64,000 bases of DNA from an uncultured Gammaproteobacteria bacterium (lineage in GTDB: Bacteria > Patescibacteriota > Microgenomatia > Levybacterales > GWA1-39-11). This document shows, piece by piece, positions 10,809 to 51,573 of the stretch. The position numbers and the translations under genes were made by a program. Where the stretch lies: positions 14,963-78,962 of the forward strand of contig CAZHDZ010000006.1 of NCBI GenBank assembly GCA_964531275.1. The letters run 5' to 3'. The first letter of the stretch is position 1, and the number at the start of each line of letters is the position of its first letter. Below the pieces are notes generated by a model. It made no database searches. It saw nothing but the letters and a program-made list of their open reading frames with translations, and was not told the origin of the DNA.

Positions 10809-10809
10809 T

Positions 10810-15276: not shown

Positions 15277-15279
15277 AAT

Positions 15280-15786: not shown

Positions 15787-16166
15787 TACATAACTTTCGC
15801 AATCAAAAAGGGCAAACGCTCGTTATTATGCTTACCTACATGGTAATAGCTGTTGTTGTTACAACTGCATCAATTGCTTTGGTTTTAAATAGCGCGAGCG
15901 GTACAGATAAAGTCTATCAGGGAACCAACTCCCTTGATATTGCAGAAAGTGGAGCAGAAACTGCTATGATAAAGTTACTAAGAAATCCGAATTATACGGG
16001 CGAGACATTGACAGTTGGAGGAGGCCAAGCAGTAATAACCATAACGGGCACCAATCCAAAAAAAGTTATTTCGAAAGGGACTCTCAACCATTTTACTCGT
16101 ACAATACAGGTGCTAGTAGATACAAGTAACAATACTCTCACTGCTATATCCTGGAAGGAAATCTAG
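15783..16166 (+). CDS. PilX-like minor pilin (hydrophobic N-terminus without Glu5, AESGAETAMIKLL motif)
   Basis: QKGQTLVIMLTYMVIAVVV followed by IAESGAETA, which resembles the PilX N-terminal region. Confidence 0.55.
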   Translation: MIHNFRNQKGQTLVIMLTYMVIAVVVTTASIALVLNSASGTDKVYQGTNSLDIAESGAETAMIKLLRNPNYTGETLTVGGGQAVITITGTNPKKVISKGTLNHFTRTIQVLVDTSNNTLTAISWKEI

Positions 16167-16175
16167 ACTGCTCAT

Positions 16176-16874
16176 ATGGAATTTACAAAAAAACAACCTG
16201 CTTTTATTTATCTTGATAAAAATGGCTTCTACTTTTTTGAGAATGGCATGACCCAAGTAATAAGTCTCGCTTTCCTTGCAACTTCTGTAAAAGATATGGA
16301 CGTTATCAATGGTGGCTCGCTTATGACCCAGGTAAAAGGTTTTATAGATCAATATAAACTGTCCCCTGCGGCAGCCACCATAATCTTCTCTCCAAATATT
16401 ACCTTTGAAAAAGATATCGTTGATCTTGCCCATGATCAGCAGGAAGAAGAGATTAAAAAATTCTTAGAGACAGTTCCTTTCGACAGCGTGCTTTCAAAAG
16501 AGTATCCGATTAATAAAGGGGTTAAGATAATCGCGGTCAATGAGGATATATACATGGAACTTAAAATGGCATTTGAGAAAAACGCATGGAGCGTTGATAA
16601 CGCTGTAGCTTATCAAATGATGGGTCAAGATCAGACATTTATTCGCAATCTAACTCCAGACAACGCAGCACAACTCGTAAAGCGTCTTTATCACCTAAAA
16701 CAAGCAACACTTCTAACTGTTGAGAAAGAAAAATTCCAACCAATTGAAATGTCTTCTGACAATAAAAAGGAAATGACAAAAACAAAAAAAGTAAATGTTC
16801 GTCTCTTTGCCATGATTGGAATTTTCGGAATTCTTTTCGTTGTTCTGGGTTTTATGATAATTAACATGAAATGA
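16176..16874 (+). CDS. Hypothetical pilus-locus protein, ~205-aa cytoplasmic domain with a C-terminal TM anchor; possibly a reduced PilM-like component
   Basis: ORF track. C-terminal helix LFAMIGIFGILFVVLGFMIINMK. Sits between the minor pilins and the major pilin. Confidence 0.4.
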   Translation: MEFTKKQPAFIYLDKNGFYFFENGMTQVISLAFLATSVKDMDVINGGSLMTQVKGFIDQYKLSPAAATIIFSPNITFEKDIVDLAHDQQEEEIKKFLETVPFDSVLSKEYPINKGVKIIAVNEDIYMELKMAFEKNAWSVDNAVAYQMMGQDQTFIRNLTPDNAAQLVKRLYHLKQATLLTVEKEKFQPIEMSSDNKKEMTKTKKVNVRLFAMIGIFGILFVVLGFMIINMK

Positions 16875-17058
16875 GATTCTTAAATCTTTTTCTGATTTAT
16901 ATTTTTTTCTACAATCAGAAATAAAATCCTCACAAATTGCTATTGAAATCATGAAAAGAAAAATTAATATGAGATATTTTTTGGTTAATTTGAAGCAAAA
17001 GTTGCTCTTAAATTACCTATTGACAAGGTTTTTCAAATATGATTATCTTAATACAGAT

Positions 17059-17532
17059 ATGACAACTGCCCAGTTTAAAAATCAAAAAGGTTTCACACTC
17101 ATCGAGTTACTCGTAGTGATCGGAATCCTAGCCGTTCTTCTTGCTATCACTCTTATTGCTATCAATCCAGCGAGACAATTCCAACAGGCAAATGACACAA
17201 AAAGATCTTCTGACGTAAATGCTATTCTTAGTGCAGTCGGACAATATTCAGCAGACAACAAGGGAAATCTAACAGCTCTTGGAATCCCAACAGGAACAGC
17301 AGCGATTATCGGAGATGGAGTTGGACAAGTTGATCTTTGCGATGACATAGTCACACAATACATGGCTGCCCTACCTGTAGATCCATTAACGAATAACGGA
17401 GCCCCAGTAACTGATTGTACAGCTGCATACGATACGAATTACACAATTGTTCAAAGCGCTGCAAACAGCAGAATAACTGTAAGTGCTCCAGCAACTGAAA
17501 TCGGAGCTGTAGACATCTCAGTAACTCGATAG
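17059..17532 (+). CDS. pilA: Type IV major pilin (PilA-like) prepilin; start ambiguous (17059 gives leader MTTAQFKNQKG; in-frame ATGs at 16951 and 16969)
   Basis: KGFTLIELLVVIGILAVLLAITLIAINPARQFQQAND is a canonical type IVa pilin N-terminus. Mature length is about 145 aa. Confidence 0.8.
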   Translation: MTTAQFKNQKGFTLIELLVVIGILAVLLAITLIAINPARQFQQANDTKRSSDVNAILSAVGQYSADNKGNLTALGIPTGTAAIIGDGVGQVDLCDDIVTQYMAALPVDPLTNNGAPVTDCTAAYDTNYTIVQSAANSRITVSAPATEIGAVDISVTR

Positions 17533-24433: not shown

Positions 24434-25297
24434 TTAAAACCAACGTTTCTTTTTTGATTCTTCTGCAAATTCCTCAAGAAGCTCTTTTTGTCTTGAGGAT
24501 AATTTGCCAGGCACTTCAACTTGAACTCTTACATAGTGATCTCCATGAGTAGAAACATTAACATGCTTTACACCCTTCCCCTTAATCCTTATAAGAGTCC
24601 CTGGTTGAGTTCCTTGTGGTATTTTAAGCTTTACTTTTCCAGCAACTGTCTCGATTTCCTCAATGCCACCGAGGGCCGCCTCGTGCATTGCCACTTTAAG
24701 ATCTGAGATGATATCATACCCTTCTCTTCTGAATTTAGAGCTTGAAGCAACAGAAATTAAAATATCAAAATCATTAAATTGAATTCTTGATCCTTCATTT
24801 ACTCCTGCCGGTACTTTAATGTCTTTCTTAGTTCCATCCAAAGATACCGTTTTTGTAGTTCCTTTTACTGCTTCCATAAAATCAATTGTTAAAGAATATG
24901 CAGGCTTTCGTCTTCCAAAAGGGGAAGCACCGCCAAAAAATTGCTCAAAAATATCAAATGGATCTGTCCCACCAAAATCAAAACCCTGGCCACCGTTACT
25001 TGTATATGAATAACTAAAAGGTCCCTGCTGGCCACCAAATCCTCCAAAGGGCCCACCCGCTCCCCCACGTCCTCCATTCTCAAATGAAGCGGACCCGAAT
25101 TGATCATATTGTTGTCTTTTCTGAGGATTTCCAAGAATTTCGTATGCTTGATTTATTTCTTTAAATTTTTCCTCTGCTTCTTTGGATTTATTTTTATCAG
25201 GATGATACTCAACAGCAAGCTTTCTGTATGCCTTTTTAAGCTCTTCCGCAGTCGCGGACTTAGTAACTCCTAACACTTTGTATAGGTCTGAATTCAT
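24434..25297 (-). CDS. DnaJ-family co-chaperone lacking the zinc-finger CxxCxGxG repeats (class B, CbpA/DnaJ-like): J-domain, G/F-rich region, C-terminal substrate-binding domains
   Basis: YKVLGV...HPDKN J-domain with the HPD motif. A GGFGG-rich linker. No CxxC repeats. Confidence 0.85.
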
Positions 25298-25358: not shown

Positions 25359-27056
25359 TCATCTTGGGGAACAGATGAGAGGGCAAATCTGAATACTTTT
25401 TCCGTTTTTTGTACATTTTGGATCAGGAACGCAACTAAAATACTGGTCGGGAGTTGGAGTTGGTGTTCCGACTTGCTTAAATGCACCCAAGGTTGGAGTT
25501 GGTGTGGGAAATAACACGGTTGGCAATGGAGCAAACGTTGCTGTAGGGCTTATTGTAAGACTAGGAACAATTGTCGTTGAGACCGATGGCGTGAGGGTTG
25601 ATGCCACTGTTGGTAATGCTGTTAAAGAACCGCAGGCTTGCATTGCCTTATACACATTAAGTCGCGGACCAATTGGCCTATCAGTAGATATTGGTTCTGC
25701 ACCTTGAATGAGACAGTCTTTTACTTGAGATGCGGAAAGAGACGGTTTTGCTGCCAAAAGAAGCGCAGCTGCTCCTGCAACATGAGGACTTGCCATACTT
25801 GTTCCTTGACTGGATTTATATCCTCCACCTGGCCATGTCGATATAATTCCTGTCCCCGGTGCTGAAATTCCAACAAATGACCCAAAATTAGAAAAGGATG
25901 CCCTTGAGTCAGTGGGTGTAGTTGCGCCAACAGCTAGAGCCCCACTGCATGATGCCGGACTATAGAGACCAGCATCCTCAGCAACGTGCGTGGTTGGGTG
26001 GCCATTTCCAGCAGCAACAACAACCAAAACACCCTTTGAAACAGCGTATGTTATTGCCGTATCATACTGGCTACCCTGTCTACATGGAGTCCTGCCACCC
26101 AGACTCATATTAATAACTTTTGCTCCATTATCTGCTGCGTAACTGATAGCCTGTGTCGTTGCAGTTGTGTCGCAGCTTGCAGAAGAACCGTATGGGACAC
26201 ATACCTTTAATGGCATTATCTTAACCGTCCAATTAACACCCGTCACCCCAACAGAATTATTACCAACTGCACCTACTGTTCCTGCAACATGCGTCCCATG
26301 TCCCACATCATCAGCTGGGTTTGAGTCTCCATTGGCAAAGTCGTACCCAGCTACCGCATTTGCAGATAAATCGGCATGGGAAGCTTCAATTCCCGAATCA
26401 ATTACAGCAACAACAACACTTCCAGAACCTTTTGTCATATCCCATGCAAGCGGCGCTTGAATTTTTTCCATTCCCCAAAGCTGACTATAATTAGGATCGT
26501 TTGGAACTGCAAAAAGCTCAAACTGGTTATTGGGCTCTGATGAGTAAAAGAAAGGGACGCTTGCAAGTTCTTGCTGCACATTAATAGCATCTACTCCTTG
26601 ACGTAATTTTAATGTATAAAATCCACGAAGCATTATGTCATCGGTACTATAAACTTTGACGAATGATACTACCCCAATCTTTTTAAAGACATCATTAATT
26701 TCGGAAAGCTTTTCTTGGGGCTTCTTTTCTTTAAGAATACTGTCTTGTGCCGAATTCCATGTATTCACAGTCTTGCCTAAAATATTTCTATCATTCTTAT
26801 TAAATTCTTCTTCCTTTTTCATTAAATCTGAAGGAATATAGTCATCTCTAAATCGAACCACTATTTCATTGGGGACATATCTTTCCGTTGCAGGAAATGC
26901 CTCATATTTTTTTGAATAGACTTCATTTTTTTTTGCGGATTTCTGAAAAACGGTTGCAAAAAAATATAGAGTAATCAGAACAAATACAAAAAGAGTGATT
27001 ACTATAAAAAGTACTCTTGGAGATTTTAAGTTATTGATTGAGAATTGCTTTAACAT
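25359..27056 (-). CDS. Subtilisin-like serine protease (peptidase S8) with N-terminal TM anchor, prodomain-like region and C-terminal Pro/Thr-rich, Cys-containing tail
   Basis: Catalytic triad motifs VAVIDSGI (Asp), HGTHVAGT (His), GTSMASPHVAG (Ser). Confidence 0.9.
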   Translation of the reverse strand: MLKQFSINNLKSPRVLFIVITLFVFVLITLYFFATVFQKSAKKNEVYSKKYEAFPATERYVPNEIVVRFRDDYIPSDLMKKEEEFNKNDRNILGKTVNTWNSAQDSILKEKKPQEKLSEINDVFKKIGVVSFVKVYSTDDIMLRGFYTLKLRQGVDAINVQQELASVPFFYSSEPNNQFELFAVPNDPNYSQLWGMEKIQAPLAWDMTKGSGSVVVAVIDSGIEASHADLSANAVAGYDFANGDSNPADDVGHGTHVAGTVGAVGNNSVGVTGVNWTVKIMPLKVCVPYGSSASCDTTATTQAISYAADNGAKVINMSLGGRTPCRQGSQYDTAITYAVSKGVLVVVAAGNGHPTTHVAEDAGLYSPASCSGALAVGATTPTDSRASFSNFGSFVGISAPGTGIISTWPGGGYKSSQGTSMASPHVAGAAALLLAAKPSLSASQVKDCLIQGAEPISTDRPIGPRLNVYKAMQACGSLTALPTVASTLTPSVSTTIVPSLTISPTATFAPLPTVLFPTPTPTLGAFKQVGTPTPTPDQYFSCVPDPKCTKNGKSIQICPLICSPR

Positions 27057-27576
27057 TTGGCTCTACTCCTTGTACTTCAGGAATTGTATAAATTACCTTT
27101 GAAGCATCCTCAACATTCGTTCCTTTTTTAAAGGTGAGTGTATAAAAACTATTGAGAGTTGGGTCTGTGGTTTTTTCATAAATATGTGTCTCACTCGTTA
27201 CTCCAACACTTTCTAGGATTTTTTTAATCTCTGCTCTTCTTTTTGGATCTAATTCTTCCGGAGTTTTCCCTAATTGGTACGAAATCACTAATTCATCTTC
27301 AACATATAGTTCTTTATCTGGGAATGGGAGAAGTGTAGGCTTTGCAATTGGCACAGGAGTAGGAGTGATAGTCGTTTTGTTTGAGACGCCAATAGCGACA
27401 CCTACCGCACCCAAGAGCAGCAGAACAAATGCTATTGTAAGAATAATGACAATCTTTTTTTTATAGAAAGGTTTTGACTCCTGCGGCAACTGAGATTGAA
27501 TAGGTGCTTGAACCGGTGATTGGACAGTAGCGTTTGGATCCATATAGTACTTATGCTGGCTGCATTTGGGTGCCAT
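27031..27576 (-). CDS. Membrane-anchored protein resembling a free-standing subtilisin prodomain (inhibitor I9-like), paralogous to the N-terminal region of the adjacent subtilase
   Basis: ELVISYQLGKTPEE...FYTLTFKKGTNVEDASKVIYTIPEVQGVEPN aligns by eye with the subtilase N-terminus EIVVRFRDDYIPSD...FYTLKLRQGVDAINVQQELASVPFFYSSEPN. N-terminal TM. 26-nt overlap with the subtilase gene. Confidence 0.5.
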   Translation of the reverse strand: MAPKCSQHKYYMDPNATVQSPVQAPIQSQLPQESKPFYKKKIVIILTIAFVLLLLGAVGVAIGVSNKTTITPTPVPIAKPTLLPFPDKELYVEDELVISYQLGKTPEELDPKRRAEIKKILESVGVTSETHIYEKTTDPTLNSFYTLTFKKGTNVEDASKVIYTIPEVQGVEPNVKAILNQ

Positions 27577-30436
27577 CTGCTCCTATGGTTGGCATTGGAG
27601 TTGTAGGGGTAGCAGAAGGCTGGGTTTGATCTGCAGTAAATGGATCAAATGGCGCTGGTGCCATCGGATTTTGGATTGGAGTGTACGGATCAACTACCAT
27701 ACCATTTGATTGGGAAGGAGGTGCTACTGGAGCCTGTTGAACCGCTTGACCTTGGGGAACTTGTTGGGACGCACCGTCAGGAGAAGGTGGCATTCCATTT
27801 GTTGGTGGCTGTGGTGCTTGTCCTTGCGGCTCTGCTCCCGGAGCGACTGGCACTGGAGTAGTCTTTACAAATAGATACTCTCCTTTTGCAGTGTCATAAT
27901 CAACCTTTATAGTATCCCCAGCTAAAAATTCTTGACCGATAATTTTTAAACTGATAGGGTTTTCGATTACATTTTGTATAAGGCGTCTTAATGGACGAGC
28001 TCCATAAATTGGGTCAAAGCCCTCATCACCAAGCTTTTCAAGGGCAAGATCAGAAATTTCCAATACAAATCCCTGCTCCTTTAATAACTTCGCAGTTTTA
28101 CCAATATTTATTTTTGCAATAAGCTTCATGTCCTGCTTCCTTAACGGCTTAAAAATAACAACTCCATCAAAACGATTTACCAGTTCTGGTCTAAAGAATT
28201 TAGTCAACTCATCCATAAGCTTCTTTGAAAGATCAGCAAATACTTTTTGCGCTGCTGGATCTTGATTTGGAGTCTTCGGAATTGCAGCAACTGCCCCATT
28301 TGCACTGGCGATTGTAGGGGTAGTAGTTGGAACAGCCTGATTTTGAGTTGAAGCAGACGCCCCAGTGTCGCCTGGGAGTCCTGGTGTAGCAGGAGTCGCA
28401 CCTTGAGCCTTTTCACTTGCAGTCTTCGCGTTAGTCAATGCTTCCTGAATCAAATTGCTTCCAATATTTGAAGTGGCTACAACAATAGTATTCTTAAAAG
28501 AAATTGTATTTCCCTTATTATCAGTTAGCCTTCCATCTTCAAGAAGTTGAAGTAATATATTAAATACATCAGGATGTGCTTTTTCGACTTCATCTAGTAG
28601 GACTATTGAGTATGGTTTTGCGCGTACGGCTTCAGTAAGTTGTCCCCCTTCTTCGTACCCTACATATCCTGGAGGTGCACCAATAAGCTTTGCCACCTCA
28701 TGCTTTTCCATGTATTCAGACATGTCCAATCTAACCATGGCATCATCACGACCAAACAATATCTCGGCTAAGGTCTTTGCCAGTTCTGTTTTTCCAACAC
28801 CCGTTGGTCCAAGGAAAATAAATGAAGCAATTGGCCTGTTGGCTGCTGCCAATCCAATTCTTCCACGCCTAACGGCCTCCGACACTGCGGCAACAGCTTC
28901 TTCTTGATCAATAAGTCTCTGGTGTATCAGGTCTTCAAGTTGCAAAAGCTTTTTCCCCTCGTCTTCCGTAAGTTTTGTTATAGGAATACCTGTCCAATCC
29001 GAAACAACCTTCTCAATATCAGCTCTTGATACATTTCCGTCGGTCCTTTGGCCTTGTGCAAGCTTCAACTTTACTTCAGCAGCTGCTTCATCCAATAAAT
29101 CAATTGCTTTGTCTGGCAAGAAACGCTCCCCAACATATTTCTTAGACAGTGTCACTGAGAATTTGATTGCATCCGGAGTAAGCACTACATTATGATATTT
29201 TTCGTATTTCTCCTTTAAGACATCAAGCATTTTCATAGCTGTCTCTTCATCTGGCTCATCAACTATTACTGACTGAAAACGCCTCTGAAAAGCCTTGTCT
29301 TTTTCAAAATACTTTCTATATTCTGCAGTGGTTGTTGTGCCAATTAGTTGCAATTGTCCACGAGCCAAGTAAGGCTTTATTATGTTAGATGCGTCCATTG
29401 CGCCTCCTCCTTCTTCCCCAGCGCCAATGAGCGTATGTATTTCATCAATGAAAAGCAGAATCTTTCCGCTTGAAATCTGCACCTCTTTAATGACATTTTT
29501 AAGTCTTTCTTCAAACTCTCCTCTATGTGAAGCTCCGGCGATTAAAGCTGCTAGATCAAGCTCTATAATTTGCTTATCCTTCAGCTGGTCTGGCACATTT
29601 CCTTTAACAATATTTTCAGATAAGCCTTCAATTACAGCTGTTTTTCCAACCCCTGCTTCACCAATAATGATTGGGTTATTCTTAGTGCGGCGCAGTAATA
29701 TATGAGTAAGCCTTTCTATTTCTTTATCACGCCCAATAACAGGATCTAATTTTCCGTCTCTTGCCTCAGCAGTTAGATCTATTCCAAATTGCTCCAATAC
29801 GGTCTTTTTACCTGCAGCTTGAAAAGTAGGGTTTTTTGAAAGATTCTTTTCAAGTCCTTCTTTTTGTACACCTTTAGTGGTGAGATATTGAGCTGTGCTC
29901 TCAGAATTAAATAAGGAGAGCAGAATATCTTCCGGGGTAATAAAGCTTGACCCTCTATTCTTAGCCATAGTAAATGCATCATCAAAAATCTTTTGAGAAG
30001 TAGGCGAAAGAGTGGGTATTCCATCTGAAGTTCCCGGTGTCTGCTTTTGCTGTAGCTCTCGTGCAAGATCTCCTGCATTCACCGAAAACTCCTGCATAGT
30101 CTTATAAATCTCTTTGTCATATAGCAAACCAAGAAGAACGATATCTGGGTTAATTTGCGAAAGTCTGGCTTTTTTCGCTTCACTTTGGGCTTGCTGGAGA
30201 ACTTGATTGGCTCGCGCATCTAGATGAGTAAGGCTTTCGACATTCTGTCTTTTAACAGGATCCATACCACCGGGAGAAGTAGGCGTTTCTACGACCTGCT
30301 GCGGCACAGGGGCTATGCCAATACCCCCCTGCATACCTTGATTTGGCATGCCTTGCTGATCAGACATACTAGGGTCCATTACGCCATCTTCACCGTATTT
30401 TTTATTACTGAACAAATTTCCAAACATATTACTCAT
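27551..30436 (-). CDS. clpC: Hsp100/Clp-family double-AAA+ ATPase (ClpC/ClpA-type: Clp_N repeats, both AAA modules intact, no M-domain), with Q/M/P-rich N- and C-terminal extensions and a ~55-aa low-complexity insert at the position of the ClpP-binding loop
   Basis: GEAGVGKTA / LLFIDEIH in D1; GPTGVGKTE / VLLDEVEKAH / ATSNIG / GARPLRR in D2. D1 and D2 are nearly contiguous. The insert follows the sensor-1 ATSNIG of D2. Confidence 0.85.
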   Translation of the reverse strand: MSNMFGNLFSNKKYGEDGVMDPSMSDQQGMPNQGMQGGIGIAPVPQQVVETPTSPGGMDPVKRQNVESLTHLDARANQVLQQAQSEAKKARLSQINPDIVLLGLLYDKEIYKTMQEFSVNAGDLARELQQKQTPGTSDGIPTLSPTSQKIFDDAFTMAKNRGSSFITPEDILLSLFNSESTAQYLTTKGVQKEGLEKNLSKNPTFQAAGKKTVLEQFGIDLTAEARDGKLDPVIGRDKEIERLTHILLRRTKNNPIIIGEAGVGKTAVIEGLSENIVKGNVPDQLKDKQIIELDLAALIAGASHRGEFEERLKNVIKEVQISSGKILLFIDEIHTLIGAGEEGGGAMDASNIIKPYLARGQLQLIGTTTTAEYRKYFEKDKAFQRRFQSVIVDEPDEETAMKMLDVLKEKYEKYHNVVLTPDAIKFSVTLSKKYVGERFLPDKAIDLLDEAAAEVKLKLAQGQRTDGNVSRADIEKVVSDWTGIPITKLTEDEGKKLLQLEDLIHQRLIDQEEAVAAVSEAVRRGRIGLAAANRPIASFIFLGPTGVGKTELAKTLAEILFGRDDAMVRLDMSEYMEKHEVAKLIGAPPGYVGYEEGGQLTEAVRAKPYSIVLLDEVEKAHPDVFNILLQLLEDGRLTDNKGNTISFKNTIVVATSNIGSNLIQEALTNAKTASEKAQGATPATPGLPGDTGASASTQNQAVPTTTPTIASANGAVAAIPKTPNQDPAAQKVFADLSKKLMDELTKFFRPELVNRFDGVVIFKPLRKQDMKLIAKINIGKTAKLLKEQGFVLEISDLALEKLGDEGFDPIYGARPLRRLIQNVIENPISLKIIGQEFLAGDTIKVDYDTAKGEYLFVKTTPVPVAPGAEPQGQAPQPPTNGMPPSPDGASQQVPQGQAVQQAPVAPPSQSNGMVVDPYTPIQNPMAPAPFDPFTADQTQPSATPTTPMPTIGADGTQMQPA

Positions 30437-30455
30437 TATTCATTATATGCAGATA

Positions 30456-32756
30456 CTAATTTGAAACGCCAGGAGGTCCACCTTGCCCCTCATCTTTTTT
30501 CTCCGGTGTTTCCTCTTCTGGAAGCTCTCTTTGCATTGTCATTTCAGCATGGCCCTCTTGGGTCTTGTTGTCAGCTCTATCAACCATTGTGTCATCCTCT
30601 TCCTTCTTACTATCAACGGACGTCATCACCGATTTTGCAGCTTCAAGTTTTGCCTTCAAGTAGGATACGACCTCAGTCTTAGAGAATCCTCCCAGGAGTA
30701 AAAATGGCAATATATTAGCCACTCTTTCCATTCCCTTATCTACATTCTCTTGGCTTTCTGAGCTAAGGAGATTGATCGTTTCCGTAATATTTTCAATGTC
30801 TGTCTGAAGGAAGGTATGCTTATCGGTTGGTATTCCATTCGCTCCGATTGGCGTCTCAATATTTTGATAATTTTCCTGCCACATTTTCTTAACATCCTCG
30901 TATTCTTCTATGCTCACTTGCTGAACTTGGTTTGTTTGAGGGAGTGAAACATCTTTAATTCCTGCTGTTGCTTGTGGTTTTTGACCAGGAATAACAGCTC
31001 TTGTCTTACTATTAACCTGCTCAGAGACACGAGAGGCCGACAATACATTGCCCGCAAGCTTATCACCTTGTTTTTGCTGAGAGATAAGTTTTTCTTTTAT
31101 TGTTGTAAATTTCTCCCTATCCATAGATCCCATAACGGTTGTAGGTTTTGAGATCTTCTCTAATGTTTCGTGGAAATTATTTACTTCGGTCTTTGAGACA
31201 GTGTCATGCTTTGTCATGGATGTTTCGTATCGAGCAATATCTCTCATCTTTGGAATTGAAAGATTAGCAAGCTTTAGCACATCCCTTGTCTCTCTTACTG
31301 TCTGCAAACTTGAGAGGGAGGCTCTTTCAATAGATGAAGTAGATGAAGATGTCTGGCTAGTGTTAGTGTTGGTGTTCGTATTCGTGTTGGTATTAGTATT
31401 TGTGTTGAGCTTCGAATTAAATATTGAACTTGAATTCGAATTTACCTTTGAAATTGTGTTTGTAGCCGAATTTGAGATGGTCCTCCCGGCAGGCATCTCC
31501 ATTGATCTTTTATTAAAGAATGGCAAAGCTTTTGCCATACCAAAAGGTGCAGGAACAGGCGGCGGAGAACCCGGAGGTGGGGGAGGATTTTGATAGGCCC
31601 GATTAAACCAGGAGTTATTCGTTATCTTCTTAACAACAGGGTTTTCAGAAATTGATACAGAGCTAAGATAATCAAGAAATATCTGCAACAAAAGGAATGG
31701 CAATAGAATAACAACCCAAAGCATGAGAAGTGCTACTACATATAACGCAAAGGTGTCGCTCAGATTTACAGAATTTGCTATATCTATTTGTTGTCCTGGG
31801 CCTCCAAGAAGAATATTGATTGCTGTGGGATAAGTCTGCTTTCCCCCTACGCTTGAGAAGTCAAAATACATAGGAATCCCACTTCTCCACACATTAACTA
31901 AGCCATGCAGAAATAATGCAAAAAGGGGTGCATAAAAAAGCCATCTGAAAAATTCCCCAATCCAAATTTTTGCTGTATTTCTAACCGGCCGGAAAAATAA
32001 TAATAAAGGAAACACTGGAGATACAATTAAGAAAAACCACAAGATAATTTTTCTAATAAGAAGAATTCCGGTCATCACATAGTAGGTAACAGCAGTAAGT
32101 TTAACCAACAGCAGAGATATAAATGCAGACTCATCAAACTCAATTCCAGGAATTCTATAACCAATAAAATTCTCGTAATCAAATGCGATGTAAAGAAGAT
32201 CTTCCGGTCCAATATTTTTTGTCACATTCGGATCTTCTAGGGAAGGCACCGATAAGAAGAATCCCTGGACAACGTCAGTTGCCTGATACATAAAGCGTAT
32301 AAGCCCATATGAAAAATAGATAAGAATAACTATTCCTATAAAAAGTGGGATGAATTTCATGACAGTTAGGTTCTGCCCGCGGGTTATTATCATTACAAAG
32401 GCAGCTCCAAGCACAAAAAGGCCCAGAAGGGCAAATACAACATAGGTAACCCTGCTCCAAAATTCTTGAATTGGATCTTGAGCGCCATTTGCGGGCAGCG
32501 TTATCCAACGGTAATTTTCTTCGGAGAGAGTCCACTTCAAAAAATCATTTGCACGTGTTGCAGTCTTACCAACAAAGGTAACCTCTTGATCTTTTACGAA
32601 GCTTGGTTGAGCACTTGTTGATGATGCTGCTATTTGAGCATCGGGAGAAAGTATGATTGAAGATTGCGCATTAGAAGTCCCAACGTAGCCTAAAAATCCC
32701 ATCGCAAAAAAAGCGATTACCAAAGCTATTTTAATCTTGGACAGTTTTTTTTGCAT
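30456..32756 (-). CDS. Large polytopic membrane protein (signal peptide, ~80-aa extracytoplasmic domain, 6 TM, ~400-aa low-complexity C-terminal region with an (NT)8 repeat and a PPPPPGSPPP stretch); topology resembles VirB6/TrbL-family proteins
   Basis: Hydrophobicity layout from the translation. The VirB6-like assignment rests on architecture only, not on a recognised sequence motif. Confidence 0.45.
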   Translation of the reverse strand: MQKKLSKIKIALVIAFFAMGFLGYVGTSNAQSSIILSPDAQIAASSTSAQPSFVKDQEVTFVGKTATRANDFLKWTLSEENYRWITLPANGAQDPIQEFWSRVTYVVFALLGLFVLGAAFVMIITRGQNLTVMKFIPLFIGIVILIYFSYGLIRFMYQATDVVQGFFLSVPSLEDPNVTKNIGPEDLLYIAFDYENFIGYRIPGIEFDESAFISLLLVKLTAVTYYVMTGILLIRKIILWFFLIVSPVFPLLLFFRPVRNTAKIWIGEFFRWLFYAPLFALFLHGLVNVWRSGIPMYFDFSSVGGKQTYPTAINILLGGPGQQIDIANSVNLSDTFALYVVALLMLWVVILLPFLLLQIFLDYLSSVSISENPVVKKITNNSWFNRAYQNPPPPPGSPPPVPAPFGMAKALPFFNKRSMEMPAGRTISNSATNTISKVNSNSSSIFNSKLNTNTNTNTNTNTNTNTSQTSSSTSSIERASLSSLQTVRETRDVLKLANLSIPKMRDIARYETSMTKHDTVSKTEVNNFHETLEKISKPTTVMGSMDREKFTTIKEKLISQQKQGDKLAGNVLSASRVSEQVNSKTRAVIPGQKPQATAGIKDVSLPQTNQVQQVSIEEYEDVKKMWQENYQNIETPIGANGIPTDKHTFLQTDIENITETINLLSSESQENVDKGMERVANILPFLLLGGFSKTEVVSYLKAKLEAAKSVMTSVDSKKEEDDTMVDRADNKTQEGHAEMTMQRELPEEETPEKKDEGQGGPPGVSN
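31358..31408 (-). repeat. Short tandem GT-rich repeat encoding (Asn-Thr)8 within the 766-aa membrane protein
   Basis: Plus-strand tgttagtgttggtgttcgtattcgtgttggtattagtatttgtgtt; translated on the minus strand as NTNTNTNTNTNTNTNT. Confidence 0.6.
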
Positions 32757-32759
32757 AGG

Positions 32760-33074
32760 CTACGAAAAACCAGGTATTTTCAAGATATTTCCAGCGATTA
32801 CAGATATAAAAACAAAGCCGAAAATAGCAAGAAGAATTCCTATAATTGCGTATGTTATATAAGACTTGCCTTTCTGTACGCTCATTGGGTCTCCTCTTGA
32901 AAGTAACAGGTGATAACCTCCAATAATGAGAAACAGGAGGCCAACCAAACCTATGAGCCCAAGCCCCCATCCATAGAATGAAGTGACAAATCCTACAGGA
33001 TTGTTGGGAAGACATCCAAAGTCTGTCTTTATAGATAATGCTGGATCACAGATTTCCCCTAGCGTTGAAGCCAT
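32760..33074 (-). CDS. 104-aa 2-TM miniprotein: Cys-containing N-region, TM1, short charged loop (SRGDPMSVQKGKS), TM2, short tail; VirB2/TrbC pilin-like architecture
   Basis: Translation. The layout parallels mature VirB2/TrbC pilins. 3-nt spacing to the downstream VirB6-like gene. Confidence 0.4.
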   Translation of the reverse strand: MASTLGEICDPALSIKTDFGCLPNNPVGFVTSFYGWGLGLIGLVGLLFLIIGGYHLLLSRGDPMSVQKGKSYITYAIIGILLAIFGFVFISVIAGNILKIPGFS

Positions 33075-33142: not shown

Positions 33143-35242
33143 TTACTCTATTACACTTCCCCAAACAACTGCCGTAAAGTCCTTTCGGACTAGAGGACTG
33201 AACTGAATCTTTGTAGGTACAATTTCAGATGCGCCTTGTAGTTTTTTTGCGTAGAAGATGTGAGACATAAATGCTCTTGGCTGAGGTGAAACACTCACAG
33301 AAAGCAATTCTTTTACCTTTTCCTGAGGCAATGTGCTGAAGAATATATAGGGTGAATCTGACAACTCACCACCAAAGAAATCTACTATATCCTCTACCTC
33401 CCGAGTGTTAAAGCCTAAGCTATACGCATAGTCTGCAATCCCCTTTCGAAGCTCTTTTTGAGATAGTACAACTCCAGAAGTAGGGGTTGATACGCTTCCG
33501 CGAGGAAAATCATAATCAATTTTTTTATACACACCATCTGCAAAACCTAGGTCTCCATTACTATTTGCTTCAAAATTCCATGAATTATTAGAAAGGCTTG
33601 GCACCGCAGAATCTCTACTTATGGGAGTTACCGGAGAGATGCTAACCTTTTTCTTATCCGCACTATAGACATAAATTGGGCAAGCTTCACATGCTTCATA
33701 ATTGGGGTATCCTTTCTTTTCCCATTCCTCTTCACATTCTGAACGAGGATTCTTGCGTACACGCTTTGGCTCTACAGGAACAAAAGTTCCAAGCTTAAGC
33801 TGCCTTGTCATCGTTGTTAGTTCATCAACGAGCTTTTTATTTCTTTCGATTCCTATTTTTTCTTGAGGTAACTTGGGCATAACAGATATAAATTCAAAGC
33901 TATTTGATTTATCAGGCGTTATAGTTGATATCAGTGATTTAGTCGACAAATTATAAATCTTAATTGAACTAAGCTTATTCTTATAACCGGATGGTCCTAT
34001 GCCATTACCAGTCCCCAAATTACCTCGAAATTCAATTTCATTTCCAACAAGTACAGTCTTATCTCCTGAAGGCAACTCCCCCACACTGAGTATTCTCATT
34101 GCATTTTCTGCCTTACCAACGATTGTTTGCTTGGTAAATTTTCCATCTTTATCTTTGTGAATAAGCTGTATCTCTGAGAAGGCAAGAGTCGAAGCACCAC
34201 CAACAGAATCTATCTTATATACTTCAGCTACAATTTCCATCTCCCCATCGGGACTCCCCGATACATACACAGGGTGTTTGTAATGCTCGCCTTGATCTCC
34301 AGGTGCTACGGTTACGACATTTTTCGATTCGAGATCATAAGTCTTTACGATATTTGTATTTACAATCTGGTCGCGGGTGCTATCAACATCCCCAGTTGAG
34401 GGCAGCTTGGAATTGCGACTATCAAACGAAGAAAAGAGAAGGTATTGCTGCTTGAATAAATAAGGATTACTGTTGTAGGTATTTAAAGGCAATATAACGT
34501 TCAGTGACTCATCTTTAAAGCCATAGTACAGTGCATAGCTACTCGGAATTATTGAATCAAAATACACGTTACCTGCATTTGTAATTAAAGAGGGCAATGT
34601 AATTTGAATACCTACGTCTGCTTGTTGCTCTGTCAGCCTGACAGGAGAAAGTGTGCCTTTGCTTTTTACTGCTTCTTCTAAATTAGCCTTATAAACTCGG
34701 TAGAAGTCTCTGTCGTGAGAATAACCATTTTCATCAGGGGCCTTTATTTCATACCATGCAACCCATTTATTGTCTTGCGAAAGCACATACCTATCGATTT
34801 TGTAGTCATCTTCAGGAGTATAAATTTTTCTAGTTGTACCATCTGGGCCACCTGAACTTGCGGCAATTTCCCTAAGTCCAAAAGCTCCACCGGCATCCCC
34901 ATAGTCAGTATCAGCAACATAGAATATATTTTTTCCGTCAGAAAGAGGGGTTGCAAATTTTATCTTGCTCTCAAGTAGAGTGACTGGTGAATTATTGACT
35001 CCAGAATCATTTACTGCAGAAATCGAAGTTGAATCTTCGCCCATTTCACCGTAAATAATGGTATTTACCGAGGAACGATCATCTTTAAGATCAGTCTGAT
35101 TTTCCTTTGGAATCTCTTTTCTAATGGTCCCCGGCTTTCCATTTTGGTTAGCTACACCAACAAAACCCAAGCCCAAGGCAATGACTGCAATAACAAGAAT
35201 AAGGGAGGATTTATTTTGGGACAGCTTCTCAACGCTTACCAT
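33143..35242 (-). CDS. Large (699 aa) N-terminally anchored extracytoplasmic protein, beta-rich, with a Cys cluster (CEEEWEKKGYPNYEACEACP); function unknown
   Basis: ORF track. Single N-terminal TM LILVIAVIALGLGFVGV. Confidence 0.5.
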   Translation of the reverse strand: MVSVEKLSQNKSSLILVIAVIALGLGFVGVANQNGKPGTIRKEIPKENQTDLKDDRSSVNTIIYGEMGEDSTSISAVNDSGVNNSPVTLLESKIKFATPLSDGKNIFYVADTDYGDAGGAFGLREIAASSGGPDGTTRKIYTPEDDYKIDRYVLSQDNKWVAWYEIKAPDENGYSHDRDFYRVYKANLEEAVKSKGTLSPVRLTEQQADVGIQITLPSLITNAGNVYFDSIIPSSYALYYGFKDESLNVILPLNTYNSNPYLFKQQYLLFSSFDSRNSKLPSTGDVDSTRDQIVNTNIVKTYDLESKNVVTVAPGDQGEHYKHPVYVSGSPDGEMEIVAEVYKIDSVGGASTLAFSEIQLIHKDKDGKFTKQTIVGKAENAMRILSVGELPSGDKTVLVGNEIEFRGNLGTGNGIGPSGYKNKLSSIKIYNLSTKSLISTITPDKSNSFEFISVMPKLPQEKIGIERNKKLVDELTTMTRQLKLGTFVPVEPKRVRKNPRSECEEEWEKKGYPNYEACEACPIYVYSADKKKVSISPVTPISRDSAVPSLSNNSWNFEANSNGDLGFADGVYKKIDYDFPRGSVSTPTSGVVLSQKELRKGIADYAYSLGFNTREVEDIVDFFGGELSDSPYIFFSTLPQEKVKELLSVSVSPQPRAFMSHIFYAKKLQGASEIVPTKIQFSPLVRKDFTAVVWGSVIE

Positions 35243-35246
35243 AGCA

Positions 35247-35729
35247 TTAGCTCTTCTTTACTATATTAATTTCAATCTTATCTAAATCTTTAAGAAGAAT
35301 CCATCGGTAAAAAGCCGATACTTTTTTATCATTCTTTTTTATCGTTATTTCATAACCATCAAACTCACGTATGCCACCTATCTGAGTGTCGCTGAAAGTA
35401 GTCCCCATAGTGTCAAAGAAATCTCCAAGAAAGAATGGAAACGGGATTGGATATTCCATATGTATAAGACCTGTTGCATCATGCGTATGTAGGGGGTGCA
35501 TACATGCGGTTGTTAATCCTATATTTGCCGGTACTAAAACGTCTACACCGTCTTGAATAATTTTAAGTTGTGTATGAGTATGCGTCGGACTATTATCAAT
35601 ATGCTCAACACACTGCATAAAAGCCAACTTTCTGAAGTGAAAAAATAGTATCGCAAAAATCAAAACCCCAAGGAAAAAATAAACGACAATCAGGACAACT
35701 TTACTACTAACACGATTTTTTCTAGCCAC
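35247..35729 (-). CDS. 160-aa N-terminally anchored protein with His-rich motifs (HTHTQ, CMHPLHTHD)
   Basis: ORF track. One TM. Immediately downstream of dnaK with a 4-nt gap to the next gene. Confidence 0.45.
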   Translation of the reverse strand: MARKNRVSSKVVLIVVYFFLGVLIFAILFFHFRKLAFMQCVEHIDNSPTHTHTQLKIIQDGVDVLVPANIGLTTACMHPLHTHDATGLIHMEYPIPFPFFLGDFFDTMGTTFSDTQIGGIREFDGYEITIKKNDKKVSAFYRWILLKDLDKIEINIVKKS

Positions 35730-35765: not shown

Positions 35766-37685
35766 TTAATTAACGACTTGACCTTCTTCGGCATCATCTT
35801 TCTTTGTCGTATCATCATTAGACTCTTCTGAGGAATCATCTTTCTTGTCTTCTGTATCCGTATTTTCACCCGACGAAGCAGAATCTTCTGGCTTTTTAGC
35901 ATACATTTTTTCGCCCACCTTTGAAATTTTTTCAGAAAGATCTTTTGTCTTTGCCTCAATTTCTTCCTTATCTTCACCGTCTTTTACCTTTTTAAGATTC
36001 TCAATCGCTTCCTCAACGTCTTTCTTGTCAGATTCTTCAACTTTACCCTCCATATCTTTCATAGATTTTTCAGCAGTAAATATTAAGTTGTCTGCACTAT
36101 TCTTAACTTCAATTAGCTCCTTCTTTTTGGCATCTTCCTCCGCATGAGCTTCAGCATCTTGAGTCATCTTCTTAATCTCATCGTCAGTAAGACCGGTGGA
36201 GCCAGTAATTTTAATGCTCTGCTCTTTACCCGTTGCCTTATCTTGTGCTTTTACTGATAGGATTCCAGATGCATCGATGTCAAAGGTTACTTCAACCTGA
36301 GGGACACCTCTTGGTGCTGGAGGAATTCCATCAAGGATAAATCTTCCCAAAGACTTATTATCATTTGCCATTGGACGCTCTCCCTGAACAACATTAATTT
36401 CAACCTGTGTCTGATTGTCGGCGGCTGTTGAAAATACTTGAGACTTCTTGCTTGGAATAGTTGTATTTTTTTCAATAAGAGGAGTTGCTACTCCACCCAT
36501 TGTTTCGATACCAAGAGTTAATGGAGTAACATCCAAAAGCAAAACGTCTTTCACTTCTCCGCCTAATACTCCCGCCTGAACAGCAGCTCCAACAGCTACG
36601 ACTTCGTCAGGATTTACGCTTTTATTTGGTTCTTTTCCGAAGAATTTAGAAACTTCTTCTATAATCTTTGGCATTCTTGTCATTCCTCCAACAAGAATTA
36701 CTTCATCGATACCTGATTTTTCTACTTTTGCATCTTTAAGTGCCTGCTTTACAGGACCAAATGATTTTTCAATAAGTGGGGCAACAAGTCCCTCAAGCTT
36801 AGATCTGGAGATTTTAACGGTTAGATGCAGTGGTCCTGAAGGGCCTTGAGTTATAAATGGTTGGTTAATTTCAGCCTCCATCGAGCTTGATAACTCAATT
36901 TTTGCTTTTTCTGCTGACTCCTTAAGTCGCTGAAGAGCTTGAGGATCAGTGCGAAGATCTATACCATTCTCTTTCTTAAATTCATCGGCCAAATAATCTA
37001 TGAGTACCTGATCAAAATCATCTCCTCCAAGATGGGTGTCTCCATTTGTTGCCTTAACTTCATACACACCGTCTCCAAGCTCAAGGACAGAGATATCGAA
37101 TGTTCCTCCGCCAAGATCATAAACAGCAACTGTATGTGCATGTTTTTTATCAAGACCGTAAGCAAGAGCAGCGGCTGTTGGTTCATTTACGATTCTAAGC
37201 ACTTCAAGCCCGGCAATTTCTCCAGCCTGCTTTGTAGCTTGGCGCTGGGCATCATCAAAATAAGCAGGAACAGTAATAACCGCTTGCGTTACTTTATCTC
37301 CCAAATAATCCTCAGCATCCTTCTTAAGTTTTTGAAGAATTTGAGCTGATACCTCTTGAGGCGTGAAGGTTTTTCCATCTACTTCTACGACAGCCATTCC
37401 TTCACGTCCTGATGTAACTGTATAGGGAAGAAGCTTCATGTCTCTTTGGACAGATTCATCTTTCAACTTTCTCCCCATGAGTCTTTTGACGGAGAATATT
37501 ACCTTCTTTGGCTTAAGAACCATTTGTCTTTTTGCAACATCTCCCACAACCCTATCGATTGGATCAACGACTGAAGGGGTGGTATTTCTTCCTTCTGAAG
37601 AAAAGATAACCTTTGGAGATCCTCCCTCCATGACAGCCATACAAGAGTTTGTTGTTCCTAAATCTATACCTATAATTTTTCCCAT
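35766..37685 (-). CDS. dnaK: Molecular chaperone DnaK (Hsp70) with extended acidic C-terminal tail
   Basis: [21 protein letters not shown], and [11 protein letters not shown] signatures. Confidence 0.97.
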
Positions 37686-37697
37686 AATTTATTTAGT

Positions 37698-38201
37698 TTA
37701 TTTTTTGCCTCCGACTTTTACCTGCGCCGGTCTTATTAATTTTCCGTGCAAAGTAAATCCCGGACGTACTTCTTCTATTACTTCATCGCTATTTCCTTCT
37801 ACTACCTCTATCGCTTCCATCGTGTCTGCATTATATTTTGCACCAATAGTTGCGATCTTTTCAATACCATTCTCTTTTAAAATCTCAATAATTCTTGCAA
37901 TCGTTAATTTAACACTCTCGTCGTTAGTATACTTACCTGCCATCATCAATGTGTCAAAGGCCGGTAAGAGTGCTTCTATTAAATTCCTATTTGCAAACCT
38001 TATTGCGTCTAATCGCTCCTCACTGCTTCGTCTCTCTAAGTTTCTATAATCTGCAACTGCCCTCTTTAATTGATCAGTTAGTTCCTCTATCCTTTCGTCT
38101 TTCTCATCTTTTTCAATGACCTCTTCAACTTCCTCAACTATTTCCTCTTTTTTCTCTTCTTGTTTTAGATTTTTATCATTCATTTGCTTACCAATTTGCA
38201 A
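37698..38201 (-). CDS. grpE: Nucleotide exchange factor GrpE
   Basis: LKRAVADYRNLERRS and a C-terminal beta domain. Sits between hrcA and dnaK. Confidence 0.9.
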   Translation of the reverse strand: MQIGKQMNDKNLKQEEKKEEIVEEVEEVIEKDEKDERIEELTDQLKRAVADYRNLERRSSEERLDAIRFANRNLIEALLPAFDTLMMAGKYTNDESVKLTIARIIEILKENGIEKIATIGAKYNADTMEAIEVVEGNSDEVIEEVRPGFTLHGKLIRPAQVKVGGKK

Positions 38202-38910
38202 CTTCTTCTATTAAAGAGCCGTAGTACCTTACTAGTGGCACGATATTTTCATATCTTAACCTGGCAGGTCCAACAACGCCTATGGTTCCGTCCTGATTGC
38301 TTCTTGTATGAAATTTCGAAAAAACAAAACTATAAGGTCTAAATAATTCCAACTCTAAATCTTCCCCCAAAACTACAGCAAACTTTTCATTAATTCTTCC
38401 AAAAATTGTATCAAAATAATCTTGATTGTCCAATAGATTTAAAAGATTACGTGTTACATCAATGTCGTAAAACTCAGGCATATCAAGAATCTGTGAATAC
38501 CCGGCGCAGTAAAAGTCTCCACCCTTGCTAATTGCAACCGCTAATGTCCCGGTCTTTTCAGCTAGTCTATGAGTCGCAAGACGCATAAATTCTCCTTCTT
38601 TCTCTCTGACGTCCCAAATTTTTTCTTTTGCCTCTACCTCCTCAGCAACTGAAAGCTCTTTCTCTTTCATAAGCTCATTTACATATAGCTTAATTGCTTT
38701 AGATGTGGGAACACGACCAGCAGATGTGTGTGGCTTTCCAAGGTATCCTTTCTTAACCATTGCCGCCATTTCATTTCTGATCGTCGCAGGGCTTACACCG
38801 ACATCATATTTTTTTTCAAGGGTCTCTGAGCCAACTGGGTTGGCCGTATCTATATACTCTTTAACAATTTGTTTGAGTATTTCAATCTGTCTTTGTGTTA
38901 AATCATACAT
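38188..38910 (-). CDS. hrcA: Heat-inducible transcription repressor HrcA (short form)
   Basis: N-terminal winged-helix LTQRQIEILKQIVKEYIDTANPVGSETL is the classic HrcA start. Forms an operon with grpE-dnaK. Confidence 0.85.
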   Translation of the reverse strand: MYDLTQRQIEILKQIVKEYIDTANPVGSETLEKKYDVGVSPATIRNEMAAMVKKGYLGKPHTSAGRVPTSKAIKLYVNELMKEKELSVAEEVEAKEKIWDVREKEGEFMRLATHRLAEKTGTLAVAISKGGDFYCAGYSQILDMPEFYDIDVTRNLLNLLDNQDYFDTIFGRINEKFAVVLGEDLELELFRPYSFVFSKFHTRSNQDGTIGVVGPARLRYENIVPLVRYYGSLIEEVANW

Positions 38911-38959: not shown

Positions 38960-38986
38960 TTAGCAATAATATATCACGAGTGCTAA
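38960..38986 (-). promoter_or_regulatory. CIRCE operator upstream of hrcA: on the gene strand TTAGCACTC-GTGATATAT-TATTGCTAA (left arm canonical, right arm 7/9)
   Basis: Read directly in the sequence, 50-75 nt upstream of the hrcA start. Confidence 0.6.
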
Positions 38987-41916: not shown

Positions 41917-41943
41917 TTATCAGTATACAACCTCGAGTGCTAA
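41917..41943 (-). promoter_or_regulatory. CIRCE-like element upstream of hsp20: gene strand TTAGCACTC-GAGGTTGTA-TACTGATAA (left arm canonical, right arm 6/9)
   Basis: Read in the sequence in the hsp20 / PEGA divergent intergenic region. Confidence 0.4.

Positions 41944-49609: not shown

Positions 49610-51573
<1,964 letters not shown>

Follow-up and report, generated by a model that had tools for sequence, protein, structure and literature searches.

A gene for an Hsp100 protein, encoded at 27551..30436 on the minus strand of a 64,000-nucleotide stretch of DNA (hereafter the window), joins an intact double-ring ATPase core to the absence of both features by which such proteins are usually recognized as partners of ClpP or of DnaK, and it stands in a conserved row with genes for envelope proteins. 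On balance, we lean towards reading its product as a ClpP-independent double-ring unfoldase that would act together with an envelope module made up of a VirB2-like protein, a VirB6-like protein and a protease. Hsp100 proteins are usually sorted by a ClpP-docking loop (ClpA, ClpC, ClpE) and by a middle domain, or M-domain (ClpB, ClpC, ClpG, ClpL); the loop marks the partners of proteases and the M-domain marks disaggregases that are coupled to DnaK or are regulated. The window (positions 14,963 to 78,962 of the forward strand of contig CAZHDZ010000006.1, assembly GCA_964531275.1) is deposited as DNA of an uncultured Gammaproteobacteria bacterium and is placed by GTDB in the Patescibacteriota (Microgenomatia; Levybacterales; GWA1-39-11). 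Its G+C content is about 39%, and the nearest named homologues of the Hsp100 come from Candidatus Levybacteria/Levyibacteriota, in the Microgenomates group of Patescibacteria.

The open reading frame (ORF) is uninterrupted and codes for 961 amino acids, with the true start probably at Met4 (ATG at 30427), because 118 of 120 homologues begin with M(F/L)G..F. Matches to Pfam and NCBIfam models, together with the homologues, support the gene call; the Pfam domains are Clp_N (twice), AAA, AAA_lid_9, AAA_2 and ClpB_D2-small. The first AAA+ module (D1) carries Walker A at residues 259-266, Walker B at 328-334, sensor-1 at 365-370 and an RR finger at 383-388, and the second (D2) carries Walker A at 543-550, a GYVG pore loop at 586-594, Walker B at 612-620, sensor-1 at 654-659, an arginine finger at 753-758 and sensor-2 at 812-818. 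With both modules, their motifs and the D2-small domain in place, the protein belongs to the two-ring class I Hsp100/Clp AAA+ ATPases. An AlphaFold2 monomer model built from 84 family sequences (mean predicted local distance difference test, pLDDT, 73.5) has a well-folded core, and pLDDT falls below 50 at residues 1-55, 682-710 and 862-958. The N-domain, a double Clp_N repeat at about residues 62-205 (29822..30253, minus strand), is matched by PF02861 in two stretches, is supported by alignment, is modelled with pLDDT above 90 and is preceded in the family by a conserved MDPxKRQ motif. An initial reading made from the sequence alone (the sequence-only reading) had described intact Walker, sensor and arginine-finger motifs in both modules and Clp_N repeats at the N-terminus, and both descriptions hold. 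Judged by its homologues, the protein is a member of a large family in the Microgenomates group rather than a one-off: the 120 best database matches are 56-91% identical and 834-1215 amino acids long, the closest (91% identity) has the same architecture, and more than 160 members were examined.

The two sorting accessories were assessed by alignment with E. coli ClpA, E. coli ClpB and a set of ClpC references. The last are canonical ClpC genes of other phyla, recovered by a contig scan with the peptides DMSEYME and DE[VI]EKAHP; these peptides are universal to Hsp100s, so the output was useless for family synteny and was kept only as a source of references. Between LPDKAID and the GPTGVGKT motif of D2 the spacing is 102 residues in the window protein, against 100 in ClpA, 157 in ClpC and 218 in ClpB. 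The junction itself (residues 448-542; 28811..29095, minus strand) is modelled as a helix-loop-helix without a coiled coil, and the alignment has a gap where the ClpC references carry their M-domain. The same spacing of 102 recurs in 83 of the 86 homologues in which the search pattern matched, and an M-domain was found in none of the 120 database homologues or 39 metagenome-locus members examined. This agrees with the sequence-only reading, in which D1 and D2 were nearly contiguous and the ClpB-type M-domain was missing. As the M-domain is lost, neither DnaK coupling of the ClpB type nor regulation of the MecA type is expected.

The ClpP-docking tripeptide is likewise absent. After the D2 sensor-1 (ATSNIG), E. 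coli ClpA has IGL and the ClpC references have VGF or LGF, whereas no [ILV]-G-[FL] occurs at the loop position in the window protein, in the 120 database homologues or in the 39 metagenome-locus members. Across the whole window protein, the pattern [ILVM]G[FLM] matches only LGL102, in a Clp_N helix, and IGL527; the latter is not the ClpP surface loop, because it aligns with the conserved 'AGL' segment that precedes the D2 Walker A of ClpA and ClpB. Both the missing tripeptide and the precise location of the insert, at the V/IGF or IGL position of ClpC and ClpA, had been correctly called from the sequence, and no conventional IGF or IGL loop is hidden elsewhere in D2.

In place of the tripeptide stands a disordered A/T/P-rich insert of 53 residues (676-728; 28253..28411, minus strand; A 23%, T 17%, P 15%), placed by the alignments and modelled with pLDDT below 50 over residues 682-710. 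Within it lies one short conserved motif, SANGAVAAIPKTPNQDP (residues 711-727; 28256..28306, minus strand), recognized in a right-aligned consensus of the 43 closest sequences as SxNGAVAAVPK(V/I)PNQDP with 50-90% column conservation; the rest of the insert is unconserved, and the motif is missing from more distant family members. In members without the insert, the loop from sensor-1 to F-RPE is 33-42 residues long (36-42 in the more distant database homologues), a normal, ClpC-like length, and the tripeptide is already gone. Other clades have loops of 63-141 residues made up of unrelated low-complexity sequence, and loop length varies continuously from 33 to 121 among the 39 metagenome-locus members and from 33 to 141 across the family. 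Because insert-free members already lack the tripeptide, the ClpP motif was lost first and the loop expanded later; the idea that the insert replaced the ClpP loop is therefore not sustained. On this comparison the loop, which lies on the D2 exit face, had already degenerated when a clade-specific expansion turned it into the insert, and the conserved motif may add a contact. The sequence-only reading had also considered that the insert might be a strain-specific expansion absent from orthologues; it is indeed confined to a clade, although not to a strain.

Three further family traits, which the sequence-only reading had missed, are a motif at each terminus and a substitution in the D1 pore. 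A motif M(F/L)GNLF stands at the extreme N-terminus of the same 118 of 120 homologues, and in the window protein it reads MFGNLF (residues 4-9; 30410..30427, minus strand) and is disordered in the AlphaFold2 model. In 84 aligned members M1 and F6 are invariant and G3, N4 and L5 are at least 90% conserved. Its sole occurrences in 1.3 Mb of related DNA are the starts of these Clp genes, so it is not a general targeting signal. A derivation from the ClpC start MFGRFT, as a displaced remnant packing on the N-domain, was also considered and is unsupported, the motif being disordered in the monomer model. There follows a disordered linker (residues 10-60; 30257..30409, minus strand; pLDDT 31-50) whose length differs among homologues; residues 1-60 as a whole are rich in G, M, P and Q. 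At the other end, a disordered P/Q-rich tail (residues 862-961; 27554..27853, minus strand; pLDDT 32-41; P 24%, Q 15%, A 13%) closes with a conserved DGTQMQPA (27554-27577, minus strand), and DGTxMQP is found a few residues from the C-terminus in most family members. Every homologue with a recognizable sensor-2 motif has 103-203 amino acids after it, against 38 in ClpB. Long extensions rich in Q, M and P were rightly described at the outset; the term 'prion-like' fits them less well than a description as disordered linkers with conserved short motifs. In the D1 pore loop, GASHRGEFEER (29504..29536, minus strand), a histidine replaces the canonical tyrosine of the KYRG motif. Histidine occupies this position in 117 of 123 family members and arginine in the other 6 (40 of 41 metagenome-locus members have histidine), where other Hsp100s have KY, KF or RY, and the GYVG pore loop of D2 is intact in 123 of 124.

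One line of evidence for an envelope partner comes from gene order. Immediately upstream of the Hsp100 gene lies the gene for a 766-residue polytopic membrane protein, the candidate upstream partner, with a signal peptide, about six transmembrane (TM) segments and a helical tail (30456..32756, minus strand), and upstream of that is the gene for a small VirB2-like membrane protein of the 'T4SS_pilin' type (32760..33074, minus strand; Pfam PF18895, conserved sequence). Orthologues of the membrane protein are homologous over their full length in all related loci, at 39-57% identity. The VirB6-like gene is immediately upstream in 8 of the 9 loci found through the Hsp100, and the same succession of pilin, membrane-protein and Hsp100 genes surrounds homologues of 56-72% identity as well as more distant representatives, persisting where dnaJ has moved. 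A reciprocal test, in which metagenome contigs were scanned with two peptides specific to the membrane protein and loci were therefore selected independently of the Hsp100, returned 70 unique loci, 42 of them with at least 3 kb downstream. The gene for this Hsp100 follows on the same strand within 2.5 kb in 40 of these 42, and within 300 bp in 26 of the 40; in the remaining two loci the Hsp100 lies upstream of the membrane protein. In 61 of 63 loci the pilin-like gene is the immediate upstream neighbour of the membrane-protein gene. A single small ORF intervenes between membrane protein and Hsp100 in 12 of the 40, mostly matching the C-terminal domain of a 699-residue protein encoded further upstream in the window (see below).

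Downstream, the row continues with genes for two TM-anchored proteins. The start of a 181-residue ORF (27031..27576, minus strand), whose TM-anchored product has a region resembling the fervidolysin N-prodomain by domain search, overlaps the final 26 nucleotides of the Hsp100 gene (27551-27576), which suggests translational coupling in the cassette; in many loci a homologue of this protein is encoded between the Clp gene and the S8 gene. Next comes a membrane-anchored S8 subtilase (25359..27056, minus strand; PF00082, N-terminal TM anchor), predicted to be extracytoplasmic, with a C-terminal four-Cys motif. A large TM-anchored protease is the next gene after the Hsp100 in 28 of 32 loci, comprising 13 of family S8, 8 of an HExxH 'M64-like' type and 7 of M4/M28, and the motif (Y/F)xCxxDPxCx7Q(L/I)CPL(I/V)C ends some members of all three unrelated protease families, where it looks like a common docking or sorting tag. 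Since the families vary while position and Cys motif are shared, the protease slot is conserved and its occupant exchangeable. The motif is encoded at 25359-25450 in the window and was also seen in loci L005, L006, L008, L100, L103, L104, L110, L115, L119, L137, L145 and L154. The sequence-only reading proposed an Hsp100 that works without ClpP or docks to another partner, possibly the neighbouring subtilase or membrane proteins. The membrane-protein partner gains strong support from linkage and from the shared domains described next, whereas the subtilase is excluded as a counterpart of ClpP on which a ring in the cytoplasm could dock, because its N-terminal membrane anchor predicts a location on the extracytoplasmic side.

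Joint action of the Hsp100 with the membrane-protein tail is indicated most strongly by a set of fusions, detected by BLAST against the Hsp100 sets (a homology search with the tail itself gave only 30 short fragments without Pfam domains). In one relative, P0134 (L090, 10001-12493), the final ~230 amino acids are related, at 35% identity (E 2e-34), to the helical domain that ends the window's membrane protein. This Hsp100, encoded on a 45.9-kb contig in an unrelated context, lacks Clp_N, MFGNLF and the P/Q tail. Its domains stand in the opposite order to the genes, so that read-through cannot explain the fusion. Three others (P0122, at L092 8001-12335, and the proteins of L159 and L172) are 1312-1444 amino acids long and carry up to eight copies of a ~50-residue repeat, '...NP...F..LH.K......GN.LA..IL...', homologous to repeats of the membrane-protein tail (E 1e-23 to 3e-25). 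That P0134 gained the tail and lost the N-domain, the N-terminal motif and the C-terminal tail would fit a role for one of these in mediating contact. The tail domain (30459-31319 in the window) is all-helical, and its fusion to cytoplasmic Hsp100s suggests that it is itself cytoplasmic; profile and Foldseek searches recognized no known Clp adaptor fold, such as MecA or ClpS, in it. In the longer membrane proteins of L008 and L092 the tail module is itself present in two or three copies. An imperfect hexanucleotide repeat at 31358-31407 gives the tail of the window's membrane protein a (TN)n run, possibly a length-variable spacer, and a similar run occurs in the orthologue of L008.

In the window, the module lies inside a heat-shock operon. 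From 38910 to 24434 a run of genes with small gaps occupies the minus strand in the order hrcA, grpE, dnaK, two ORFs, the pilin-like gene, the membrane-protein gene, the Hsp100 gene, the prodomain-like gene, the S8 subtilase gene and dnaJ. The genes hrcA (38188-38910), grpE (37698-38201) and dnaK (35766-37685), identified by Pfam and together spanning 35766..38910, precede the Hsp100 on the same strand, and dnaJ (24434..25297, minus strand; identified by translation and synteny) closes the chaperone operon that encloses the module. In the related loci, dnaK lies upstream of the module on the same strand in 28 of 33. Directly upstream of hrcA is an inverted repeat resembling the controlling inverted repeat of chaperone expression (CIRCE), at 38960-38986 on the minus strand with 2 mismatches, which overlaps the best sigma-70-like promoter of the region (38996-38968). 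A second CIRCE-like repeat (41917-41943, 3 mismatches) stands immediately upstream of hsp20 (41445-41888, minus strand), which suggests a small HrcA regulon that takes in hsp20. The two ORFs between dnaK and the pilin-like gene encode TM-anchored proteins of 699 (33143-35242) and 160 (35247-35729) amino acids, both on the minus strand. In about a dozen related loci the last ~180 residues of the 699-residue protein are encoded on their own, by a small ORF that separates the membrane-protein gene from the Hsp100 gene, and this domain may be an accessory component of the cassette.

The window encodes a second Hsp100 paralogue of 790 amino acids (5623-7995, minus strand), with N-terminal hydrophobic segments resembling a membrane anchor in place of Clp_N. 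Its D1 is degenerate, with a Walker A and no DE Walker B, and its D2 is otherwise intact with a pore loop lacking GYVG; it has neither an M-domain nor a ClpP tripeptide. A 2-hydroxyacid dehydrogenase gene follows it, and the pair is found just downstream of dnaJ in L005, L006 and L009.

The relationships of the family place it apart from the named Hsp100 types. Among curated NCBIfam models the best is ClpB (TIGR03346), which matches in three separate stretches at 889.6 bits against a cut-off of 1232.1, followed by ClpA (TIGR02639; 711 bits against 993.15), ClpV/TssH (TIGR03345; 689.8 against 884.95) and the ClpG/ClpK models NF033607 and NF033606 (665.3 and 678.6 bits against a cut-off of 1900). 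The D2 core is 66% identical to that of E. coli ClpB. Sequence and fold searches against the PDB rank ClpB and ClpC about equally, with ClpC slightly ahead by structure. A profile-free search, exhaustive over 1.84 billion representatives, returned only a handful of family representatives at the 50% identity level and then canonical ClpC and ClpB types, at about 45-50% identity. In a neighbour-joining tree the family forms a separate clade, nearest to canonical ClpC (distance 0.78) and then to ClpB (0.83); since this tree is star-like outside the family and was built without bootstraps, it resolves a ClpC as against a ClpB origin weakly. Its neighbours in the tree (P0125, P0126, P0127 and P0129) have a disordered N-terminal extension and an M-domain of ClpC length that aligns with that of ClpC, and in the two of them in which the loop pattern matched, P0125 and P0127, the tripeptide was not found. 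On our preferred reading the family is specific to Patescibacteria (Microgenomates group). Descent from a ClpC-like ancestor is likely but not firm, and the 'ClpC-type' label given from the sequence is defensible, in that an M-domain of ClpC length is retained by the nearest lineages and, if by a small margin, no canonical type is closer than ClpC. Public records name the homologues ClpC or 'ATP-dependent Clp protease ATP-binding subunit', and the latter annotation is probably wrong for this family. The literature searched held no description of the family or of its link to VirB2/VirB6-like genes, and Clp is not mentioned by Meheust et al. 2019.

These observations can be brought together in a working model. 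The Hsp100 would be expressed from the HrcA/CIRCE-controlled dnaK operon and would serve as the cytoplasmic ATPase of a module that further comprises the VirB2-like protein, the VirB6/TrbL-like protein and the extracytoplasmic anchored protease. Its hexamer might be tethered, through the terminal motifs and/or the N-domain, to the cytoplasmic helical tail of the VirB6-like protein, and might thread or extract polypeptides at the membrane, driven mainly by D2. Such a role would resemble that of ClpV, or of VirB4 in type IV systems, and would be unlike that of ClpC, which feeds ClpP. The architecture, the lost motifs, conservation across the family, the operon context, the near-obligate linkage and the shared domains are observed, and physical docking, the direction of threading and the substrates are the parts of this model that we infer; the ring could extract or assemble the pilin, drive export to the protease at the surface, or pull damaged proteins out of the membrane. 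A bolder proposal, which we regard as rather unlikely, is that the four-gene cassette constitutes an undescribed trans-envelope machine in which an Hsp100 ring sits on a membrane channel in place of ClpP or VirB4. Two versions of such a machine can be envisaged. One would use the ring to power either the assembly of a VirB2-type surface structure or its turnover; the other would thread damaged polypeptides out to a protease tethered at the surface and so amount to a Clp protease divided between the two sides of the membrane, in organisms from which ClpX has been lost.

Several points weigh against assigning the Hsp100 to an envelope module. The basis of the assignment is sequence, gene order and domain sharing, and linkage inside a heat-shock operon could mean co-regulation only. 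P0125, a member of the sister lineage, is not linked to the module. Fusions are rare, at 4 among about 200 members. By a simple hydropathy count the signal peptide of the membrane protein is followed by six TM segments, an arrangement that would leave the tail outside, and the cytoplasmic location of the tail is inferred from the fusions only; the tail domain, moreover, has no meaningful match in a profile search against PDB sequences or in a Foldseek search with its AlphaFold2 model. The family assignments of the partners also sit at the edge of detection: TrbL scores in orthologues of the membrane protein are 24.6 and 19.8 bits against a cut-off of 25.9, with no Pfam match for the window's own membrane protein, and the pilin-like protein of the window scores 26.5 bits against the PF18895 cut-off of 26.6, its orthologues being assigned to the same family with matches mostly marked 'weak'.

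The chief competitor is a general heat-shock disaggregase or unfoldase, an autonomous replacement for ClpB comparable to ClpG or ClpL, whose N-domain and disordered, Q/P-rich ends would serve to bind aggregates; gene adjacency would then reflect nothing beyond a shared stress regulon. We consider this possible, if less probable than a role in the envelope module, and the two are compatible. DnaK-independent Hsp100 disaggregases do exist, ClpG and ClpL among them, and the position of the gene inside the hrcA-grpE-dnaK...dnaJ operon with its CIRCE element, the top rank of the ClpB model, the high identity of the D2 core to ClpB and the integrity of both ATPase rings and of the D2 pore loop all agree with such a function, as does the fact that the window's one further Hsp100 is a paralogue that is anchored in the membrane and whose D1 is degenerate. 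Yet the protein has neither the M-domain that ClpB needs for cooperation with DnaK nor the D1 pore tyrosine, its near-obligate linkage to the membrane protein (40 of 42) survives the rearrangement of dnaJ, and co-regulation alone leaves the fusion of tail modules to Hsp100 relatives unexplained.

Partnership with ClpP would require non-canonical docking through the insert motif NGAVAAVPKV or the C-terminal tail, making the protein a divergent subunit of the ClpC/ClpA type. Insert and tail do emerge on the D2 face that bears the ClpP loops in ClpA and ClpC, a short conserved motif lies within the insert, and homologues are publicly named as Clp protease subunits. The insert motif is confined to the closest clade, however, and short-loop members have neither that motif nor the tripeptide; no [ILV]G[FL] is present at the loop in more than 160 members, and the second Hsp100 paralogue of the window lacks the loop as well. 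Searches by tblastn with E. coli queries gave no match to clpP or clpX, whether in the window (64 kb) or across 1.32 Mb of related loci, a biased sample of one genomic neighbourhood, and neither MecA nor McsB was found in the window by Pfam or tblastn. ClpX has been reported lost on the stem of the candidate phyla radiation (CPR) (bioRxiv 10.1101/2020.07.15.205187), and a 'predicted clp protease' gene is mentioned for TM7x in a Saccharibacteria transcriptome paper (PMC10768705). The balance is against a ClpP partnership, and docking by such an unconventional route seems to us improbable. We give practically no credence to an artefact, in which a gene that is decaying, chimeric or shifted in frame would contain low-complexity stretches that do not in reality reach translation. 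Low-complexity segments do occur at three places and the exact sequence is not in the protein collection, but the ORF is uninterrupted with all catalytic motifs intact, the 91%-identical homologue has the same architecture, the layout is common to the 120 closest homologues, and conserved motifs lie within the disordered parts. The sequence-only reading had named a frameshift as a possible source of these regions; frameshift, pseudogene and a tandem-repeat origin of the insert are all ruled out by the intact ORF, the architecture of the homologues and the absence of any DNA tandem repeat beneath the insert.

What lends the family its interest is that it dispenses with both sorting accessories and with the D1 pore tyrosine and yet is highly conserved, inside the core heat-shock operon, in a major group of ultra-small bacteria. 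Linkage and shared domains point to a dedicated membrane-associated role, which could bear on the upkeep or building of the cell surface in Patescibacteria, a matter central to their epibiotic lifestyle.

Elsewhere in the window, genes for response regulators and a histidine kinase flank a type IV pilus cluster (9120-17532, plus strand). Its products are an ATPase (PilB-like, T2SSE), a PilC-like T2SSF protein and a pair of proteins that bear N-terminal methylation (prepilin) motifs. GroEL is encoded at 49610-51250.

Set beside the known Hsp100 systems, the protein resembles ClpC in its Clp_N N-domain, its two AAA+ rings, its best structural matches and, by a small margin, its nearest canonical clade. 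ClpC differs in having a single coiled-coil M-domain set into the D1 small domain (spacing 157 as against 102), a V/I/L-G-F loop and the D1 pore tyrosine, whereas the window protein has long disordered termini with conserved end motifs and is linked to membrane proteins, not to ClpP. With ClpA it shares the lack of an M-domain and a junction of nearly the same length (100 as against 102), spanned by a single alignment stretch; unlike it, ClpA has an IGL loop, overall similarity is lower (711 bits against a cut-off of 993), and no clpS was seen near the Hsp100 gene. ClpB/Hsp104 is alike in having no ClpP loop, in its dnaK heat-shock operon and in giving the highest NCBIfam score, but is defined by a ~120-residue M-domain that mediates coupling to Hsp70, and the D1 pore tyrosine is lost in the window protein. 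ClpG/ClpK and ClpL, as stress Hsp100s independent of ClpP and DnaK, are possible functional analogues, although they keep a shorter M-domain and N-terminal domains of their own, and the scores of the window protein lie far below the cut-offs.

The T4SSs (type IV secretion systems) of Patescibacteria, which are VirB4-centred and of the monoderm type, use VirB2-like pilins of the PF18895 type and VirB6-like polytopic proteins in the same organisms, and VirB6 homologues are scarce in Microgenomatia (PMC12102498); the terms Clp, DnaK and chaperone do not occur in the text of that survey. The module described here differs in having no VirD4, VirB3 or VirB8 gene nearby and no VirB4-like gene in the window annotation or among the called genes of 10 related loci, and in lying in a dnaK operon with an Hsp100 instead. 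ClpV (TssH), for its part, keeps its middle domain and belongs to the T6SS (type VI secretion system), genes for which were not found in the window, while the Hsp100 of the window neighbours VirB2-like and VirB6-like genes. The likeness lies in the proposed role: ClpV sets a precedent for a ClpP-free Hsp100 that serves a single envelope machine with adjacent genes.

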